NCBI GenBank assembly: GCA_964429775.1
Contig: CAYSDJ010000003.1
Location: 75,129-139,128 of the forward strand
DNA length: 64,000 nucleotides
Reading direction: 5' to 3'
From: an uncultured Rhizobiaceae bacterium
GTDB taxonomy: Bacteria; Pseudomonadota; Alphaproteobacteria; UBA828
The notes beneath the pieces were generated by a model that saw only the letters and a list, made by a program, of their open reading frames with translations, searched no databases and had not been told where the DNA came from. Numbering within the stretch: the first letter of the stretch is position 1; each line of letters opens with the position of its first letter. Below are positions 32,566 through 39,549 of this stretch, in pieces. Both the position numbers and the translations under genes were made by a program.

Positions 32566-33738
32566 ATGACGATGAGCGATGCCGCGCCGGATAGCCGGCG
32601 ATGCGAAACCAGCAACGACCCGGCAAGCCTGATCGATTGCCTGTTTGCCGCGCAACTGGGCGAGGAAAAATCCAAGCCCGGGCCGGCAGTCGATTTCGGT
32701 GCTTTCGCGTCTTCCGAACGGTTGCGCTGGTTATTTCCCTGTGATGCACGGGTGCGCGAGTTCTTGTGTGCCTGGCAGCCTGCGGGCAGGTTGCGCGCCC
32801 TGATATGGCGCACCGCCGTGCGCGCCTCGACAGCCGGTTTGGCCGGATTGATGCCGGGCATAACGCGCCATGCGGTTGATGGCGCTGCCGTCGCCCGTCT
32901 TGCGCATCGCTTCGGTCACGAGACGGCGGAATGTCTGCCGGCGATTTATATCGGCACCATCGGCTATCGGCGAAAGGCGGTTGTCGGCTGGATGGATCGG
33001 CGTGGCGCCTGCGTTGCGGTCGGGAAGTTTCCGCTCGGGCGGCGCGCGGCTGAGGCATTGGCCAACGAGGCCAAGGCACTGACCGGTCCGGCCGCGAAAC
33101 TGGGCATTGCCATGCCCGCCTTGCGCCATTGGGATGAGGCGGCCGGGCTGTTATTGCAAAGCAGTGTCGCGGGGCGCAATTGTCCGGCGCCGTTCGATGC
33201 GCGCCATGCTTCCCTGCTGGTGAAACTGGTGAGCCCGGAAGCGCGCTTGGCAGCGGCGGTATATGCCGAGCTACTGGAGAGCAACGATGCGCGAATTGCC
33301 GCATCGGCGAAAATCTTATTGGCCGGGTATGAGAATGAAAATGTCTGTCCGGCGCAAATGCACGGTGATTTCACCCAGGCCAATCTGAAGCAAATTGGCG
33401 GGCGGGAATTGGCCGTGGTGGATTGGGAATATTATTCGCCCGTGGGCGCACCTTTGGCGGACGCAATCTATTTTCAATTATTTAGGAGCTATTTTATCAA
33501 TCACCTCAGCGGCCCGGCGCTGCTGCGCGAGCTGTTGCGTTTTATTGACAGCGGGCATATTGCGCGCTTGTGTGAAGTGGCGGGCATTGGATTGGCGGCG
33601 CGCCGCCGTTTCGCCTGCCTTGGGCTTTTGGCTGTCGCGCAGTCCCGTGTCCGAGACGGCGAGGATGAAAACGATGCGGCGCGCGTCACCATTCTCGATG
33701 TCGTGGATCGAATGGCAAAGGAACTTTCAGCCGGATGA
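32566..33738 (+). CDS. Aminoglycoside-phosphotransferase-like (protein-kinase-fold) phosphotransferase
   Basis: Catalytic loop HGDFTQANL and Mg-binding VVDWEY match APH/choline-kinase motifs. A candidate nucleotide-binding Lys lies in AVGKFP. Confidence 0.6.
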   Translation: MTMSDAAPDSRRCETSNDPASLIDCLFAAQLGEEKSKPGPAVDFGAFASSERLRWLFPCDARVREFLCAWQPAGRLRALIWRTAVRASTAGLAGLMPGITRHAVDGAAVARLAHRFGHETAECLPAIYIGTIGYRRKAVVGWMDRRGACVAVGKFPLGRRAAEALANEAKALTGPAAKLGIAMPALRHWDEAAGLLLQSSVAGRNCPAPFDARHASLLVKLVSPEARLAAAVYAELLESNDARIAASAKILLAGYENENVCPAQMHGDFTQANLKQIGGRELAVVDWEYYSPVGAPLADAIYFQLFRSYFINHLSGPALLRELLRFIDSGHIARLCEVAGIGLAARRRFACLGLLAVAQSRVRDGEDENDAARVTILDVVDRMAKELSAG

Positions 33739-35162
33739 AACATCGGAAATCAGAGATAGGCCCACGCCGTTTTGGCTTGTTTCGCGGTGGCGTGTTTTCG
33801 GTAATATTCCATGCGGGAATTATCCTGGTGATTGCCGTGGTGGTTGTCTATTTGCTCAACATGTCGCCCGCGGAGGACACCGGCGCGCCCGAAACGGCGC
33901 ACGATTCGGCGGGCCAGCAGGAAGCCGCCACAGAGCCTGCCGCGCCCGTTGTTCAAACTGCGAACCAGACTGTCGTTCAGAACAATGAAACCGATGCGCC
34001 CAAAACGTTGCAGGAGGTTTCCGAACGAATCGATGAATTGTTTCTCGAAATTATCAGCGGCTTCGATCCTGCCGATCCAGAATCGCGGGAATATCTGAAG
34101 CGTTTGATCCGCGATGCCACAGCCGGTTATGTCGATGAACAATTTCTCGTTGGCGAATTTTACCTGGCTGGAACAGGGGTGAAAAAGAGCGAGAAGCGGG
34201 CCGCCGAACTGCAGTTGAAATCGGCTGAGAAAAAACTTGTCGATGCGCAAATCCGCATGGGCTCACTTTACGCGCTCGGCCGCGGCGTGCCGGTTAATGT
34301 CGCGCGCGCACATATGTGGTGGAGCCTCGCCGCCGAAACCGGCGATACATTGGCGGCGCAGGCGGCGCATCTCATGCGCCCCATGATGACTCACACGGAT
34401 TTCTCAAATTCGGCGCGCGATGCCCTTGAGTTGAAGCAATATTGGGATTCCTGGCAGCGCTTCGCCATCATCAATAATCCGCAATTGAGCAATCAGCTTC
34501 TCGCTGCGGCGCGTGCCGGCAACGCGGTGCGGATTCGCCGCCTGCTTGATCAGGGCGCGGATCCCAATATCGAGGACCGCAAGGGGCGCGCGGCGTTGCT
34601 GCTGAGCGCCAAGGGTGGCCACGGCGATTCGGCGCAGGCGCTTCTGGCGCGTGGCGCCGATGCCAATGCGACCGACGAGAACGGCAAGAGCGTGCTCATG
34701 TATGCAGCCGAAAATGGCGACGGTAAATTGGTGAAAGCGCTGTTGCAGCGAAAGGTCGATGTCAACGCCGCCAATAAATTCGGTGAAACGGCGTTGATCA
34801 ATGCCGCCTGGCGCGGCAGAAAATCGGTCGCCAACACACTTATTGAGCGTGGTGCGGAAGTTGATCTGCCCGACAAGCAGGGCGGGACAGCGCTAATCTG
34901 GGCTGCCATTAACGGCCATACGGACGTGCTCGAACTGTTGGTCGACCGCCGTGCGAAAATCGATTGGATCGATAATTCCGGTTTGACGGCGCTCTCCCGG
35001 GCGGCGTGGAACGGCGAAATCGATGCGGTCGATACCTTGCTTGACCTTGGTGCCGATCCGTTGGTGCGCGACAAAGAGGGCATGACGGCCGCCATTCGGG
35101 CCGAATCGGAAGGCCACGAAGATATCGTATCAAGACTGTCGCGCTCAGCGCGCGGCGGATAG
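33735..35162 (+). CDS. Membrane-anchored Sel1-repeat plus ankyrin-repeat protein
   Basis: An N-terminal TM (VIFHAGIILVIAVVVVYLL) is followed by two Sel1-like repeats (...YLAGTGVKKSEKRA..., ...YALGRGVPVNVARA...) and at least five ANK repeats (G.TALI.AA..GH..V...L). The ATG overlaps the upstream stop as ATGA. Confidence 0.8.
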   Translation: MKHRKSEIGPRRFGLFRGGVFSVIFHAGIILVIAVVVVYLLNMSPAEDTGAPETAHDSAGQQEAATEPAAPVVQTANQTVVQNNETDAPKTLQEVSERIDELFLEIISGFDPADPESREYLKRLIRDATAGYVDEQFLVGEFYLAGTGVKKSEKRAAELQLKSAEKKLVDAQIRMGSLYALGRGVPVNVARAHMWWSLAAETGDTLAAQAAHLMRPMMTHTDFSNSARDALELKQYWDSWQRFAIINNPQLSNQLLAAARAGNAVRIRRLLDQGADPNIEDRKGRAALLLSAKGGHGDSAQALLARGADANATDENGKSVLMYAAENGDGKLVKALLQRKVDVNAANKFGETALINAAWRGRKSVANTLIERGAEVDLPDKQGGTALIWAAINGHTDVLELLVDRRAKIDWIDNSGLTALSRAAWNGEIDAVDTLLDLGADPLVRDKEGMTAAIRAESEGHEDIVSRLSRSARGG

Positions 35163-35259
35163 GGCTATTGCTTTAGGCCTTATATGCACTGGTCAAAAGA
35201 ACTGTTTTTTGCGAAATTAACCGAATATTTTCAATTTGGAAGCGACAGTTACAAAGATT

Positions 35260-35313
35260 TGATGACGTAAGACAGTCATCATGTTGACATTGTTTGCTTT
35301 GGTACAATATATA
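35260..35313 (+). promoter_or_regulatory. Sigma70-like promoter with an upstream inverted repeat
   Basis: The inverted repeat TGATGAC-N8-GTCATCA lies at 35260-35281. TTGACA is at 35284-35289. After an 18-nt spacer, TATATA is at 35308-35313. Confidence 0.35.
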
Positions 35314-35383
35314 AGCTGTGAGCAAACAGCGCTTTCCCGGTCAATGGCCGGGAGGTGCCCCATATGGAGATTGATGGCCCAGT

Positions 35384-35533
35384 ATGAGTGATGGACAGAC
35401 ACGTAGAGCTATCATTAAGCGCATGGCCGCGCTGGCGGCGCTTGGCTATGTGGCGCCTCAGGTCGTCACCATCAGAGATGCGGCGGCCAAAAAGAAAAAG
35501 AAAAAAGCCCCGCCTTCGGCGCCTAGAAACTAA
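35384..35533 (+). CDS. Small protein (49 aa) MSDGQTRRAIIKRMAALAALGYVAPQVVTIRDAAAKKKKKKAPPSAPRN, translationally coupled to a 7-codon uORF
   Basis: It is shorter than 60 aa and so absent from the ORF track. The uORF ATG at 35364 follows GGGAGG at 8-nt spacing and encodes MEIDGPV*. The uORF stop overlaps the main ATG as ATGA. The N-terminus has the Tat-like motif TRRAIIK plus AALAALG, and the C-terminus is K6. A T6 run follows at 35560-35565. Confidence 0.35.
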   Translation: MSDGQTRRAIIKRMAALAALGYVAPQVVTIRDAAAKKKKKKAPPSAPRN

Positions 35534-35572
35534 CCTGGCTACGGCACGGCTGCGCCCCTTTTTTACGGACTA

Positions 35573-36055
35573 TTATAACCGAGGGTCCTGCACTGCGTGC
35601 AGGCGGCTCGCGGCGATTCGCGCGAAGCGAAGCGTTTGTTTTCTGCGCCCGCCTGCCGGCATCGCCTCGCGCGGCGCTTCCCGGGTGCATTCGGCGCCGT
35701 AGCTGTCGGCCAACATGACGCCGCATTCCGCCGGCAGCACCGCCACCGGAAAATCCCCCGCCACAGCGAAATAGAAGTGATCGCAATGGGCCAAATAGTC
35801 GGGCCATTTCGAATCGGCGCGAAAATCCGCAAGGCTGCTTTTGATTTCGACGATGATAAAGCTGCCGCGCCGGTCGAGTGCGAGAACATCGGCGCGCCGG
35901 CCGGATGAAAGGGGAAATTCGGCCAACGCAACGCAATCCATCGCTTCTAGCAAACGGCAGACTCCGCGTACGAGCCCTTGGGCATTCTTCTCCACCTGCC
36001 ACGGCCGGGCTAAATCAAGCGCGAGCTCGACTGGTGTGATCATGACTTTGCGCAT
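35573..36055 (-). CDS. MmcB-like PD-(D/E)XK nuclease family protein
   Basis: The core ADVLALD...FIIVEIKSSLADF is a PD-(D/E)XK core of the MmcB type. Confidence 0.6.
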   Translation of the reverse strand: MRKVMITPVELALDLARPWQVEKNAQGLVRGVCRLLEAMDCVALAEFPLSSGRRADVLALDRRGSFIIVEIKSSLADFRADSKWPDYLAHCDHFYFAVAGDFPVAVLPAECGVMLADSYGAECTREAPREAMPAGGRRKQTLRFARIAASRLHAVQDPRL

Positions 36056-36197
36056 CCCGGGTTTATGCGGTTTTTGCTCTAGTTAAGACAATCGAAATAA
36101 AAACATAGCCTAATGCAGTTGAGCCGGTTGGTGGTGAGAAATCGCGCCTCTTTGGCGATCTCGCCTAGCCCGGCGGATTGGGTTTCAGACGTGGAGA

Positions 36198-37490
36198 GTG
36201 GTCGACAATGTTGCACGAACCGGTGATAAGGCGGTCAATCAAATGAGCCCCGCCACGCGCGCGACCAGCCACGAGGTAATCCTTCTCGATGTGGCTTACC
36301 GTATTGCCAAAACAAGTGAGCTGGAACCACAAATTGCGATTCATATGCATTTGTCCAATTTGCAGCCGCGCTGGCGCTCGGAAGCCTTTATCCGTGTTGC
36401 CGCCAGTACTTTTGAGCCGCTCGTGCAGAAGCGCTCGGGCCAGGTATTTGTGCTCGCGAGCGGCGATATCGTTTTTCTCGGTGGCCGTTCCAGCAACGAG
36501 GAAGTTGAAGACATTCTAACCAAACTTCAGCAAATGTTTGGCGAAGATCCATGGTTCCACGACACCAAGAAGGCAACCACGCTGCCATTCGCGACATGGT
36601 ACAGGTTGCCGGCGGACGCGGAAGCCTTTGTCACCACATGCGAGCAGTTAAACACATCGGTTGGGCAATACCGTGCGGCGGTATCCGCACAACGGAGAGG
36701 CCAAAGCGCCATGGCCAACTTGCCTGAAGCCGGCGCTGCCGAGCTTGATGATGCGCTGCACAAGATTGACGATGTCGATATGAAGCTGTCGCTGCGCCGC
36801 CAGTCGATCGGAATATTCCTGCCCGGGCAGCCGGTGAAGCGGCTTTTTTCGGAGCTTTATGTTTCTGTCTATGATTTGCACAAACGATTGGCGATGGAAG
36901 CCGATCTTGCGCAAAACCGGTGGCTCTTCCAGCATTTTACCTTGGCAATGGATGAAGCTGTACTGGCCAATTTTATCGAAAACGGAATTCCGGGCAAAAC
37001 CGGCAGTATCAGCCTCAATATCAATGTTGCGACCATTTTGTCGGCGCAATTTCTCGATTTTGATCAGGCATGGCGCCGAGGTGCCGAGGATAAAATGATA
37101 CTCGAACTGCACCAGGTCGACATTTTCGATGATATGCCGGCCTACAAATTCGCCTGTAATTTTCTCCGTATGCGGGGCTACGCAATTTGTGTCGATGGGG
37201 TGACTCATCTGACATTCCCGTTTACCGACCGCGAGAGCCTGGGCGCGGATTTCATAAAAATTGTCTGGAGTCCGGATATGGCCGGCAATCGCGAAGACAA
37301 TCTCACTCAGCGCATGAAGGCTTATGTCGCCAAGGCCGGTGCCGGCAATGTGATCCTCTGCCGCTGCGATACAAAGGAAAGTATCGAGTGGGGCCAAATG
37401 GTTGGGATCAGATTATTCCAGGGCCGCATCGTCGAAACCCTGCTCGAATCCACCGCCAATGCCGGACGACAGGCTGGCGTCGCTTCGTAA
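36198..37490 (+). CDS. Hypothetical protein with degenerate GGDEF-like and degenerate EAL-like domains (candidate c-di-GMP effector)
   Basis: The C-terminus aligns to EAL with catalytic motifs mutated: ILELHQ for EITE, CVDGVTH for DDFG, FIKIVWS for KID, and CDTKESIEW...FQGR. The N-terminus has a GGDEF-like block FVLASGDIVFL. GC is about 52%, lower than neighbouring genes. The start is GTG 36198; an alternative ATG is at 36243. Confidence 0.5.
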   Translation: MVDNVARTGDKAVNQMSPATRATSHEVILLDVAYRIAKTSELEPQIAIHMHLSNLQPRWRSEAFIRVAASTFEPLVQKRSGQVFVLASGDIVFLGGRSSNEEVEDILTKLQQMFGEDPWFHDTKKATTLPFATWYRLPADAEAFVTTCEQLNTSVGQYRAAVSAQRRGQSAMANLPEAGAAELDDALHKIDDVDMKLSLRRQSIGIFLPGQPVKRLFSELYVSVYDLHKRLAMEADLAQNRWLFQHFTLAMDEAVLANFIENGIPGKTGSISLNINVATILSAQFLDFDQAWRRGAEDKMILELHQVDIFDDMPAYKFACNFLRMRGYAICVDGVTHLTFPFTDRESLGADFIKIVWSPDMAGNREDNLTQRMKAYVAKAGAGNVILCRCDTKESIEWGQMVGIRLFQGRIVETLLESTANAGRQAGVAS

Positions 37491-37514: not shown

Positions 37515-38090
37515 CTATTCCGGCTTCTGTTCCTGCGGCGAGTGCTTGCTGAGAATGCGCTGCAAGGTGCGGCGGTGCATATTGAGGCGCCGCGCCGTTT
37601 CCGAAACATTGCGGTCGCATTGCTCGAACACGCGCTGGATATGTTCCCAACGGACGCGGTCCGCCGACATCGGATTTTCCGGCGGCGGCGGGAACGGCCG
37701 GTCACCGACATTCAGTGCCCGGTGGATTTCATCGGCATCGGCCGGTTTGGCGAGATAATCGACCGCGCCAACCTTAACCGCCGCCACCGCTGTTGCGATG
37801 TTGCCATATCCGGTCAGGATGACGATGCGCATATTTTCACGCGCCTGGCGCAGCGTTTTGACGACATCGAGGCCGCTGCCGTCCGGCATGCGCAAATCCA
37901 CCACGGCGAATTCCGGCTTTACTTCATGCGCCTTTTCCTGCGCCTCGGATACCGAGCCGGCGGCGGTGACCGCATAGCCGCGCTTTTCCATGGCGCGCAC
38001 CAAGCGGTTTCGAAAGGCGTCGTCATCATCGACCAGCAGAAGCGTTCTCTTCTGGTCTTCCGTCTCTGGTTCGTTCACCTCTGCCCCCAA
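37515..38090 (-). CDS. regA: Redox-responsive response regulator RegA/PrrA/ActR
   Basis: A REC domain (LLLVDDDD...D) is followed by the invariant C-terminal HTH PMSADRVRWEHIQRVFEQCDRNVSETARRLNMHRRTLQRIL. Confidence 0.9.
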   Translation of the reverse strand: MGAEVNEPETEDQKRTLLLVDDDDAFRNRLVRAMEKRGYAVTAAGSVSEAQEKAHEVKPEFAVVDLRMPDGSGLDVVKTLRQARENMRIVILTGYGNIATAVAAVKVGAVDYLAKPADADEIHRALNVGDRPFPPPPENPMSADRVRWEHIQRVFEQCDRNVSETARRLNMHRRTLQRILSKHSPQEQKPE

Positions 38091-38092
38091 CC

Positions 38093-39448
38093 CTAACCGT
38101 TCAACTTAACGTCACGCTGGTCGGCGCTAAGCGCTTCCAGCACCTGGCGCGGCCATGTAATAACGATACGGGCGCCATATTGGCGGCCATTGAAAAACGA
38201 CATCGACGCGCCGGTCCGCTCCAACAGCGTCTTGGCGATAAACACCCCCAACCCCATGCGGCCGCTCTTGCGGCGCGACGACACATAGGGTTCGCCGAGC
38301 CGCATCAACACAGAGGGCGCAACGCCGGGGCCATCGTCCATGACCTCCATTGTGATCAAGTGGTCGTCCCAGGTCACCACGACTTCAACTCGATTCGTGC
38401 AGAACTGTACGGCGTTTTCTATTACATTGCCGAGGCCGTGTAAAATTTCCGCCCGCCGGGGGGCGCTCGGCTCGGCCGCGTCCGAGCCTTCCGACGGCGT
38501 GGCGATGACCTCAAGTGTAACATTGTCATTGCGGTGCGGTGCCGCAGCCGCTTCAGCCAAACCGCTTACCGGCAGGCGGCCAAAGGGTTCCACCTCCTCG
38601 CCTTCGCCGAGTGCCGACAGCCGGCCAAGAATCTCTCGGCAACGCGCGACCTCACTCACCAGCAATTTGGCGTCCTCGAGATGCGGGCTGTTGGCCGGTA
38701 AGTCGCTTTCCAACTCGCGCGAAACCACGGCGATGGTCGCGAGCGGTGTGCCGAGCTGGTGCGCGGCGGCGGCGGCGAGCGCGCCCAAGGCCGAAAGACT
38801 CTGCTCCTCGGAAAGCGCCATTTGCGTGGCACTAAGCGCATTCGCCATACGCCGCGCCTCGCTGGCGACGCGCCACGCATAGGCGGTGATAAATAAAGTG
38901 CCCAACACCAGGGCGACCCAGAGGGCGAGCAAGTAGAGCGACGGCAGGCTGGGCGCGATGCCGAGCCACGGCAGGGGTTGGTGGAGAAAAGCGACAAGGG
39001 TTGCGCAAATAATCACCAGCGAGGTAATCGCAGCCGCGGAGCGCAAGCTCAGGATGGTTGCCGAAATGGCGGCAGGAACGAGAAAAAGAATGGCGAACGG
39101 ATTTTCCAGGCCGCCGGTGAGGGCGATGAGAAAAGCCAGTTGGATGACGTCATAGCCGAGAAACAGTGCCGCTTCGCCGTCGCTGAGACGGGAATCCGCC
39201 GGGCGCAGGACCGTGGCCAGCAAATTGATCGCGGCGGAGAGCGCCACGGCGCCCAAGAGCGGCACCAGCGGCAGTGAAAAGCTCAGGGCAAAATGGACCA
39301 CGAGGATGCTGACAAGCTGGCCGCTCACCGCCACCCAGCGGATCAGAATGAGCGTGCGCAGGCGCACATGGCGCGCTTCAGGCAGCCTGTCCTGGCCGGC
39401 TTCGTTCACCGTGCCGATTTGCCCATCTCGGGAAACAGTCTCGCTCAA
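38093..39448 (-). CDS. regB: Sensor histidine kinase RegB/PrrB/ActS
   Basis: The N-terminus has the RLRTLILIRW motif, followed by about six TMs, the H-box HQLGTPLATIAV and an HATPase_c domain. The start is TTG 39448 with an AAGAGG ribosome-binding site. The longest ORF to ATG 39544 would leave no divergent promoter space. Confidence 0.8.
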   Translation of the reverse strand: MSETVSRDGQIGTVNEAGQDRLPEARHVRLRTLILIRWVAVSGQLVSILVVHFALSFSLPLVPLLGAVALSAAINLLATVLRPADSRLSDGEAALFLGYDVIQLAFLIALTGGLENPFAILFLVPAAISATILSLRSAAAITSLVIICATLVAFLHQPLPWLGIAPSLPSLYLLALWVALVLGTLFITAYAWRVASEARRMANALSATQMALSEEQSLSALGALAAAAAHQLGTPLATIAVVSRELESDLPANSPHLEDAKLLVSEVARCREILGRLSALGEGEEVEPFGRLPVSGLAEAAAAPHRNDNVTLEVIATPSEGSDAAEPSAPRRAEILHGLGNVIENAVQFCTNRVEVVVTWDDHLITMEVMDDGPGVAPSVLMRLGEPYVSSRRKSGRMGLGVFIAKTLLERTGASMSFFNGRQYGARIVITWPRQVLEALSADQRDVKLNG

Positions 39449-39549
39449 CGGTATCGCGCCTCTTTTGCAATATGGAGCGCGGATAATGCGCCGTAATGGC
39501 GGCGACGACAATTGGCCTCGTCTACGCGATCCGGCATAGTGCATCCGCC

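Follow-up and report, generated by a model that had tools for sequence, protein, structure and literature searches.

The window analyzed here, a 64,000-nucleotide stretch of contig CAYSDJ010000003.1 from an uncultured Rhizobiaceae bacterium, contains an open reading frame (ORF) of 49 codons between a Sel1/ankyrin-repeat protein gene and an MmcB-like gene. Judged by its pattern of conservation, this ORF is a real, conserved, and free-standing small gene. Its product belongs, on the same comparative grounds, to a hitherto unnamed alphaproteobacterial family of micro-proteins with a conserved N terminus and a variable tail, and the conserved part looks like a signal sequence of the twin-arginine translocation (Tat) type. 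The reading that we favor, and hold to be slightly more probable than its opposite, is that of a Tat-exported pre-peptide that is cleaved after Ala35 and made from a free-standing single-gene unit.

The region 34900–35900 was read directly, and ORFs of at least 20 aa were listed. All sequence elements named in a preliminary description of this DNA are found where it had placed them, and the 49-aa product of 35384–35533 is exactly the one quoted there. The locus comprises the following features.

33735–35162, + strand: Sel1/ankyrin-repeat protein gene, the 5′ flank of the small gene
35217–35231, + strand: degenerate CtrA-type box TTAACCGAATATTTT; the TTAACC half (35217–35222) is intact, and the second half is TTTT, not TTAA
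35260–35281, unstranded: inverted repeat TGATGAC-N8-GTCATCA, abutting the −35 hexamer
35284–35313, + strand: sigma-70-type promoter with TTGACA (35284–35289), an 18-nt spacer, and TATATA (35308–35313)
near 35320, + strand: transcription start predicted from the promoter
35329–35358, + strand: stem-loop GCGCUU.CCCGGUC-AAU-GGCCGGGAGGUGC of the 5′ untranslated region (UTR), with GGGAGG (35350–35355) within the 3′ arm
35364–35387, + strand: upstream ORF (uORF) of seven codons (ATG GAG ATT GAT GGC CCA GTA TGA, encoding MEIDGPV and stop), the TGA of which overlaps the main ATG at 35384 as ATGA
35384–35533, + strand: small protein gene, 49 aa, MSDGQTRRAIIKRMAALAALGYVAPQVVTIRDAAAKKKKKKAPPSAPRN
35384–35488, + strand: Tat-type signal-like region (codons 1–35) with TRRAIIK, the uncharged stretch MAALAALGYVAPQVVTI, the basic R31 in the c-region, and A33-A-A35
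35489–35506, + strand: Lys run AAAAAGAAAAAGAAAAAA (codons AAA AAG AAA AAG AAA AAA), followed by the conserved APPSxP
35559–35564, + strand: T6 run, 26 nt past the stop codon
35573–36055, − strand: MmcB-like protein gene, convergent with the small gene

That the 49-aa frame is translated is indicated by its substitution pattern. The pooled ratio of nonsynonymous to synonymous changes (pN/pS) is approximately 0.15 in this frame, ranging from 0.10 to 0.23 for pairs drawn from five lineages, compared with 0.33–3.2 in the remaining five frames and 1.0–3.2 in the shifted ones. Within codons 1–35 of five lineages, 13, 2, and 26 sites are variable at codon positions 1, 2, and 3, respectively. A word-indexed search retrieves four clusters of 47–50 aa with 78–94% identity to the 49-aa protein, and the closest relative, lineage L011, shows 91% aligned protein identity. 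The order of the Sel1/ankyrin gene, the small gene, and the convergent MmcB-like gene is kept in six close lineages; the ankyrin neighbor is retained in the 50%-identical P0005 lineage as well. The carriers of these syntenic homologues are marine alphaproteobacterial genomes and contigs assembled from metagenomes. A scan of species-representative genomes yields a single locus, of the L001 type, and a metagenome scan with alignment A6 yields six loci, among which L034 is a doubtful match. No paralogue of the small gene is present in the 64-kb window. The preliminary description had translated this ORF, and pN/pS and the syntenic homologues back its coding status. It had also called the unit unannotated, which is correct for the 60-aa ORF track on which that description relied; homologues are already deposited in GenBank metagenome-assembled genomes as “hypothetical protein” (MDP6473391.1 and others). 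As a side observation, the L001-type small gene at L032:317–352 (metagenome contig PVBE011458710.1) has TAG in place of AAG at codon 12, with the remaining frame intact. Either a sequencing error or recent pseudogenization accounts for this.

The family to which the protein belongs was reached by two profile searches. A full hidden Markov model (HMM) scan of 1.84 billion representative proteins gives 15 matches and the second profile search 48 clusters; together they recover approximately 50 sequence clusters with proteins of 46–87 aa. All true members are devoid of a Pfam domain and a functional name. The 49-aa protein itself finds nothing meaningful in Pfam or NCBIfam, a profile search of the Protein Data Bank (PDB) finds no related solved structure, and a literature search for the GYVAPK motif or for a Tat-signal precursor of ribosomally synthesized and post-translationally modified peptides (RiPPs) returned nothing relevant. 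Four matches were rejected as members: P0006 and P0017, which are light-harvesting polyproteins of the dinoflagellate type, P0015, a TALE-like repeat protein, and P0010, another repeat protein. Their E-values range from 1e-10 to 1e-3 against the 49-position profile, and the scores are inflated because a short similar segment (RR..IKHGR.AMLATMGYITPE) recurs many times in them. Such repeat-driven matches are an artifact to watch for with micro-protein profiles.

The common part of all members is an N terminus of 34–37 residues, consisting of an RR pair, an uncharged stretch, GYVAPK, and AxA, with the consensus TRRxLxKRLAxxAAAGYVAPKVVxIxxAxA. In the 50-sequence alignment, R8, Y22, A24, P25, and I30 are invariant, and at least 90% of the members share R7, A18, V23, A33, and A35. 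Both the RR pair and a small-x-small pattern at −3/−1 occur in 49 of the 50 members. The uncharged stretch is rich in Ala and Gly and measures 12–18 residues across the family, most commonly 12.

This layout resembles that of a Tat signal. Tat signals carry an S-R-R-x-F-L-K motif, are less hydrophobic than Sec signals, are processed by LepB, and frequently have positive charges in their c-region (PMC5539426). In the window protein, residues 6–12 (T-R-R-A-I-I-K) conform to the pattern S/T-R-R-x-F-L-K. They are followed by a weakly hydrophobic, Ala/Gly-rich h-region, by a basic residue in the c-region (R31 here, K26 in most members), and by A33-x-A35 at −3 and −1; with 34–37 residues in most members, the length of the family signal is likewise that of Tat signals. 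At the level of the family, the Tat profile TIGR01409 is matched by 22 of the 50 members at E ≤ 0.1, with P0014 (17.3 bits) and P0018 (17.6 bits) above its cut-off of 16.7 bits. The NCBI annotation pipeline (PGAP) calls one relative a [quoted passage not shown] The N-terminal, signal part of TIGR02811 is matched by 32 of the 50 members at E ≤ 0.1, the best E-value being 2.6e-05. These matches uphold the Tat-like N terminus that the preliminary description had pointed out.

TIGR02811, “formate dehydrogenase region TAT target,” is an uncharacterized family of approximately 66 aa that resembles the present one in being very small and mostly Tat signal. The relatives, however, reach approximately 13–23 bits compared with a cut-off of 48.45 bits, their matches cover approximately positions 3–48 (the signal) of the 66 profile positions, and the window protein does not match at all. 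No formate dehydrogenase gene lies near the small gene in any context seen, and the family lacks what we take to be a conserved C-terminal motif of TIGR02811.

What follows the signal is short and hypervariable. The tail after AxA has 12–53 residues, with a median of 18. Across the family, His at +2 is found in 27 of the 50 tails, at least two Cys in 31, PP in 32, and at least four consecutive Lys/Arg in 15; Gly runs are also among the tail features of most other subfamilies. The window subfamily has the minimal tail K4-7-APPSxP, with invariant APPS and without His or Cys, which in the window protein amounts to 14 residues of lysine/proline character, KKKKKKAPPSAPRN. The Lys run spans 4–7 codons in the relatives, is in frame throughout, and is chiefly encoded by AAG. 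The preliminary description had viewed the run as a slippery stretch; a programmed frameshift was considered and rejected, as the relatives are AAG-rich, keep 4–7 Lys in frame, and conserve no other frame. The length of the run differs among the window (35489–35506), L011, L007, L001, L012, and L029, which looks like replication slippage under selection for the reading frame.

According to the favored reading, the conserved near-consensus sigma-70-type promoter would drive a short mRNA with a conserved stem-loop in its 5′ UTR. This mRNA would encode the 49-aa pre-peptide, the RR motif of which would be recognized by the Tat translocase. Signal peptidase I would then cut after Ala35, and the 14-residue polycationic, proline-containing peptide would be freed on the periplasmic side. 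The short uncharged stretch combined with the conserved AxA argues for a cleavable signal as opposed to a membrane anchor. In addition, Sec would handle such strongly basic tails poorly, in agreement with the Tat route.

Several observations weigh against export and cleavage of this kind or against parts of the unit built around it. The window protein lies below every Tat HMM, with no match to TIGR01409 or PF10518 at E ≤ 1. With 14 residues, the mature peptide would be uncommonly small for a Tat passenger. Classical Tat cargo is folded and often bears a cofactor, whereas the passengers in this family, with 12–53 residues, are predicted to be disordered, and conservation is higher in the signal than in the cargo. 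The conservation of the signal part, with GYVAPK almost invariant, exceeds what targeting needs, so that this part may have a function of its own. As for the transcript, the energies of the leader hairpin are unremarkable compared with shuffles in two of four lineages (z-scores −0.2 to −2.7), and the closest relative L011 has deleted the hairpin together with GGGAGG. Finally, a full CtrA-type box TTAA-N7-TTAA is absent from the entire 64-kb window, which retains the TTAACC half-site (TTAACC-N5-TTTT).

The excess conservation of the N terminus speaks for the strongest of the alternatives, to which we assign a low but not negligible probability. On this view, the protein is small and either membrane-associated or regulatory, and it undergoes neither export nor cleavage. 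Its helix and GYVAPK would be the functional elements, binding a membrane complex or the Tat receptor, and the basic tail would be cytoplasmic or contact lipid head groups or nucleic acid. An N terminus far better conserved than the tail, beyond the level of generic signal peptides, is consistent with this view, as are the low complexity and the very variable charge of the tails. AlphaFold2 run with the family alignment predicts a single helix at residues 4–21 and a disordered remainder (mean predicted local distance difference test score, pLDDT, 65), a result that counts for the favored reading as well. However, a stretch of 12–18 residues, most commonly 12, does not suffice to span a membrane stably and is what a signal h-region typically has, and the small-x-small pattern in 49 of the 50 members makes sense only with a signal peptidase cut. 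Since both ends are strongly basic in many members, the positive-inside rule would moreover fit neither orientation.

A second alternative, which we regard as unlikely, is a RiPP-like or bacteriocin-like precursor, the N terminus of which serves as leader for a modifying or processing enzyme and the tail of which is the core peptide. The combination of a conserved leader and a hypervariable core is indeed found, along with the Cys pairs in 31 and the His at +2 in 27 of the 50 members. Bufferins are signal-peptide-bearing RiPP precursors. Similar to such precursors, most subfamilies join a conserved export or leader region at the N terminus to a short variable peptide that contains Cys. Unlike them, the family signal is Tat-like and not Sec-like, and the window tail lacks Cys; it also lacks His, is not rich in Ser/Thr, and offers no typical modification target beyond one or two Ser. 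Neither an MNIO (DUF692-type modifying enzyme) nor another modifying enzyme is linked to the small gene in the window, and tblastn finds no RiPP recognition element (RRE) or peptide chaperone beside it within the 64 kb. What speaks for this alternative is that a PqqD/HprK-like operon adjoins the small gene in tail-to-tail orientation in the L014/L021/L027 subfamily (L014:3007–5970, L021:6255–9186, and L027:6297–7824). Its products are an HprK-related-kinase-like protein, a peptide chaperone of the PqqD family, an unknown protein of 326 aa, and a metallophosphoesterase, and a cytochrome c-550-like gene lies upstream. The arrangement could be a peptide-modification system or plain synteny. The three loci are closely related and thus effectively one observation, tblastn detects no homologue of the operon in the 64-kb window or at the other loci, and the neighbors differ between subfamilies.

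The remaining alternatives concern the transcript. Upstream of the small gene, the preliminary description had noted a near-consensus promoter TTGACA-N18-TATATA. The pattern TTGACA-N16-18-TATAWW, counted over the whole 64-kb window, occurs once compared with 0.02 expected occurrences; it escaped a stricter consensus scan for want of the final T in the −10 hexamer. The sequence ATGTTGACA...GCTT...CAATATA shows no or almost no variation among L011, L007, L001, L023, and L029. Being unique in the window and conserved in the relatives, the promoter holds, and so does the proposal of a compact transcription unit with a strong promoter of its own. The adjacent inverted repeat had been viewed as operator-like. 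Perfect 7-bp inverted repeats with loops of 3–12 nt number 98 in the window compared with 50–68 in block shuffles, and this abundance makes the one at 35260–35281 ordinary. It is kept by L011 with two mismatches and is not found as such in other relatives. Common by chance and not conserved, the repeat is probably incidental.

The 5′ UTR of the window folds into a hairpin of 13 bp, in which GGGAGG is located wholly in the 3′ arm (minimum-free-energy fold). In a consensus hairpin of six sequences, 90% of cells pair compared with 27–59% for slid partners, compensatory changes are seen at five of 10 pairs, and no more than five of 500 shuffles attain the observed value for any of the measures. 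It is the structure and not the sequence that is kept by the relatives, and the 3′ arm resembles a Shine–Dalgarno (SD) sequence in none of them. GGGAGG, located 8 nt before ATG 35364 and formerly taken for a strong ribosome-binding site, thus finds no support as a free one, sequestered as it is in a hairpin arm of unconserved sequence.

The uORF does not fare better. The preliminary description had combined it with the ATGA overlap into a regulatory leader or attenuator, in which translation of the uORF from GGGAGG controls the 49-aa ORF or a downstream gene. Its SD pairing is the strongest of the region (−13.9 kcal/mol), and a short ORF with a strong SD that overlaps the next ORF is what the window shares with trpL-type attenuators and coupled uORFs. 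L001 and L032 likewise have a seven-codon uORF ending in ATGA, albeit with an unrelated peptide (MWVGSDK in L001). On the other side, four of the six close lineages have no such start codon, namely L011 (ACG for ATG), L007, L023, and L029; conservation thus extends to the 49-aa ORF and not to the start or the peptide of the uORF. A uORF starting with ATG and ending in the ATGA overlap appears in 43% of dinucleotide-preserving shuffles of the 64-nt leader, and the overlap is near-automatic, given that all close relatives have AGY (Ser) as the second codon of their main ORF. For the main ATG, said to have no ribosome-binding site of its own, SD pairing is weak and badly spaced (−6.4 kcal/mol). 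This is not unusual, for seven flanking ORFs range from +1.6 to −5.6 kcal/mol, a rough comparison given that their starts were mechanically assigned. There is also nothing downstream to attenuate, as the next gene is the convergent MmcB-like gene and none is co-directional. A single 5′ hairpin is found, with no alternative terminator/antiterminator pair, and GGGAGG is buried in that hairpin, which L011 lacks. The T6 run does not look like a terminator either: no terminator-like hairpin precedes it, no intrinsic terminator is called there on the + strand (fold z-score +0.93), and the 3′ flank of the small gene is poorly conserved. A leader or attenuator is therefore very improbable, and on comparison with the relatives the uORF, GGGAGG, and the inverted repeat appear to be lineage-specific by-products and not a conserved control device.

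Least probable of all, to a degree that we consider almost negligible, is a transcript that functions mainly as a small regulatory RNA with a secondary or untranslated ORF: the strong promoter, the short transcript, and the conserved 5′ hairpin would suit it, but the codon-position pattern of substitutions and the low pN/pS do not, the protein family is recognizable down to approximately 40% identity where the DNA flanks are not conserved, and no Rfam match is found. Herein, Rfam was searched over 34800–36200 at E ≤ 10 and returned chance matches alone (snoTBR7, ctRNA_p42d, and isrG; best E-value 1.1), all far below the gathering scores. The ctRNA_p42d-like match at 35494–35536 (− strand) covers the complement of the Lys run and the stop codon with 17.2 bits and E = 1.9 against a gathering score of 50, and is judged a chance match that arises from the T-rich complement.

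Further upstream, the small gene probably was ancestrally under the control of CtrA, as suggested by boxes in the relatives. The CtrA consensus is TTAA-N7-TTAAC (PMC7200025). An exact TTAA-N7-TTAA lies at most 200 nt upstream of the small gene in eight of 14 lineages (L023, L029, L024, L014, L021, L027, L016, and L033), several times as TTAA-N7-TTAAC, and L026 has a box with one mismatch. The eight boxes compare with 0.045 predicted from base composition (binomial P 1.6e-13), and of the 10 such boxes in 178 kb of loci, eight fall within these 2.8 kb of upstream sequence. At the position homologous to the window box, L023 has TTAACCAAAATTTAA and L029 has TTAACTGTTTTTTAA. The block 35217–35231 is, promoter aside, the most conserved part of the upstream spacer. 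Boxes in eight of the 13 lineages besides that of the window, two of them close to it, make ancestral CtrA control probable. With their exact boxes, these lineages resemble CtrA-regulated promoters; the site of the window subfamily differs in lying approximately 60 nt upstream of the −35 hexamer without overlapping it. A second exact TTAA-N7-TTAA (TTAAACTTTTCTTAA) is located between PAS/HD-GYP and Peptidase_C93 genes at L014:8233, L021:11440, and L022:7305, and may be another CtrA-type site.

A bolder proposal, which we put forward tentatively and consider rather improbable, is that the family constitutes a new class of Tat-exported micro-peptides in Alphaproteobacteria, ancestrally controlled by the cell-cycle regulator CtrA, in which a highly conserved twin-arginine leader delivers a hypervariable peptide of 12–53 residues to the envelope. 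With comparably low probability, the delivered peptide would be characterized by an N-terminal X-His, a Cys pair, Pro-Pro, and/or poly-Lys/Arg, and the Lys6-APPS of the window would represent a derived branch. Conceivable roles are those of a ligand with metal or redox activity, of a polycation that binds to the envelope, and of the core of a peptide that undergoes modification.

All contexts seen show a monocistronic gene, the neighbors of which vary by subfamily: ankyrin/MmcB-like, Bax1-I/DUF938, or MR_MLE/Sulf_transp. Two subfamilies have an MmcB-like gene next to it, in convergent orientation in the window group and in divergent orientation in L018. Concerning the surroundings in the window, the Sel1/ankyrin protein (33735–35162) has a hydrophobic segment near its N terminus (residues ~20–43) and is probably membrane-anchored, as far as this segment indicates. 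Between the MmcB-like and RegA-like genes, 36198–37490 encodes a 430-aa protein with a subthreshold EAL match (25.4 bits compared with a cut-off of 31.3 bits); the window shares this protein with the L011 and L007 lineages, whereas L001 and L023 lack it there. The − strand of 37515–39544 carries a RegA/RegB-like (ActR/ActS-type) response regulator/sensor kinase pair, named from inspection of the sequences and the Pfam domains of homologues, that is kept beside the locus in most relatives.

The analysis adds a real protein-coding gene below the usual annotation threshold of 60 aa, and it defines an uncharacterized family of approximately 50 clusters without counterpart in Pfam, NCBIfam, or the PDB, in which the export signal is conserved and the cargo is not. 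It also illustrates that a textbook-looking array of SD, uORF, and ATGA overlap can arise by chance as a side effect of structure in the 5′ UTR. If the Tat reading is true, the peptides would be among the smallest natural Tat passengers and would offer a convenient natural test of Tat with cargo that is short, unstructured, and highly charged. The boxes of the CtrA type would then connect a secreted micro-peptide with the cell-cycle and motility program of Alphaproteobacteria.

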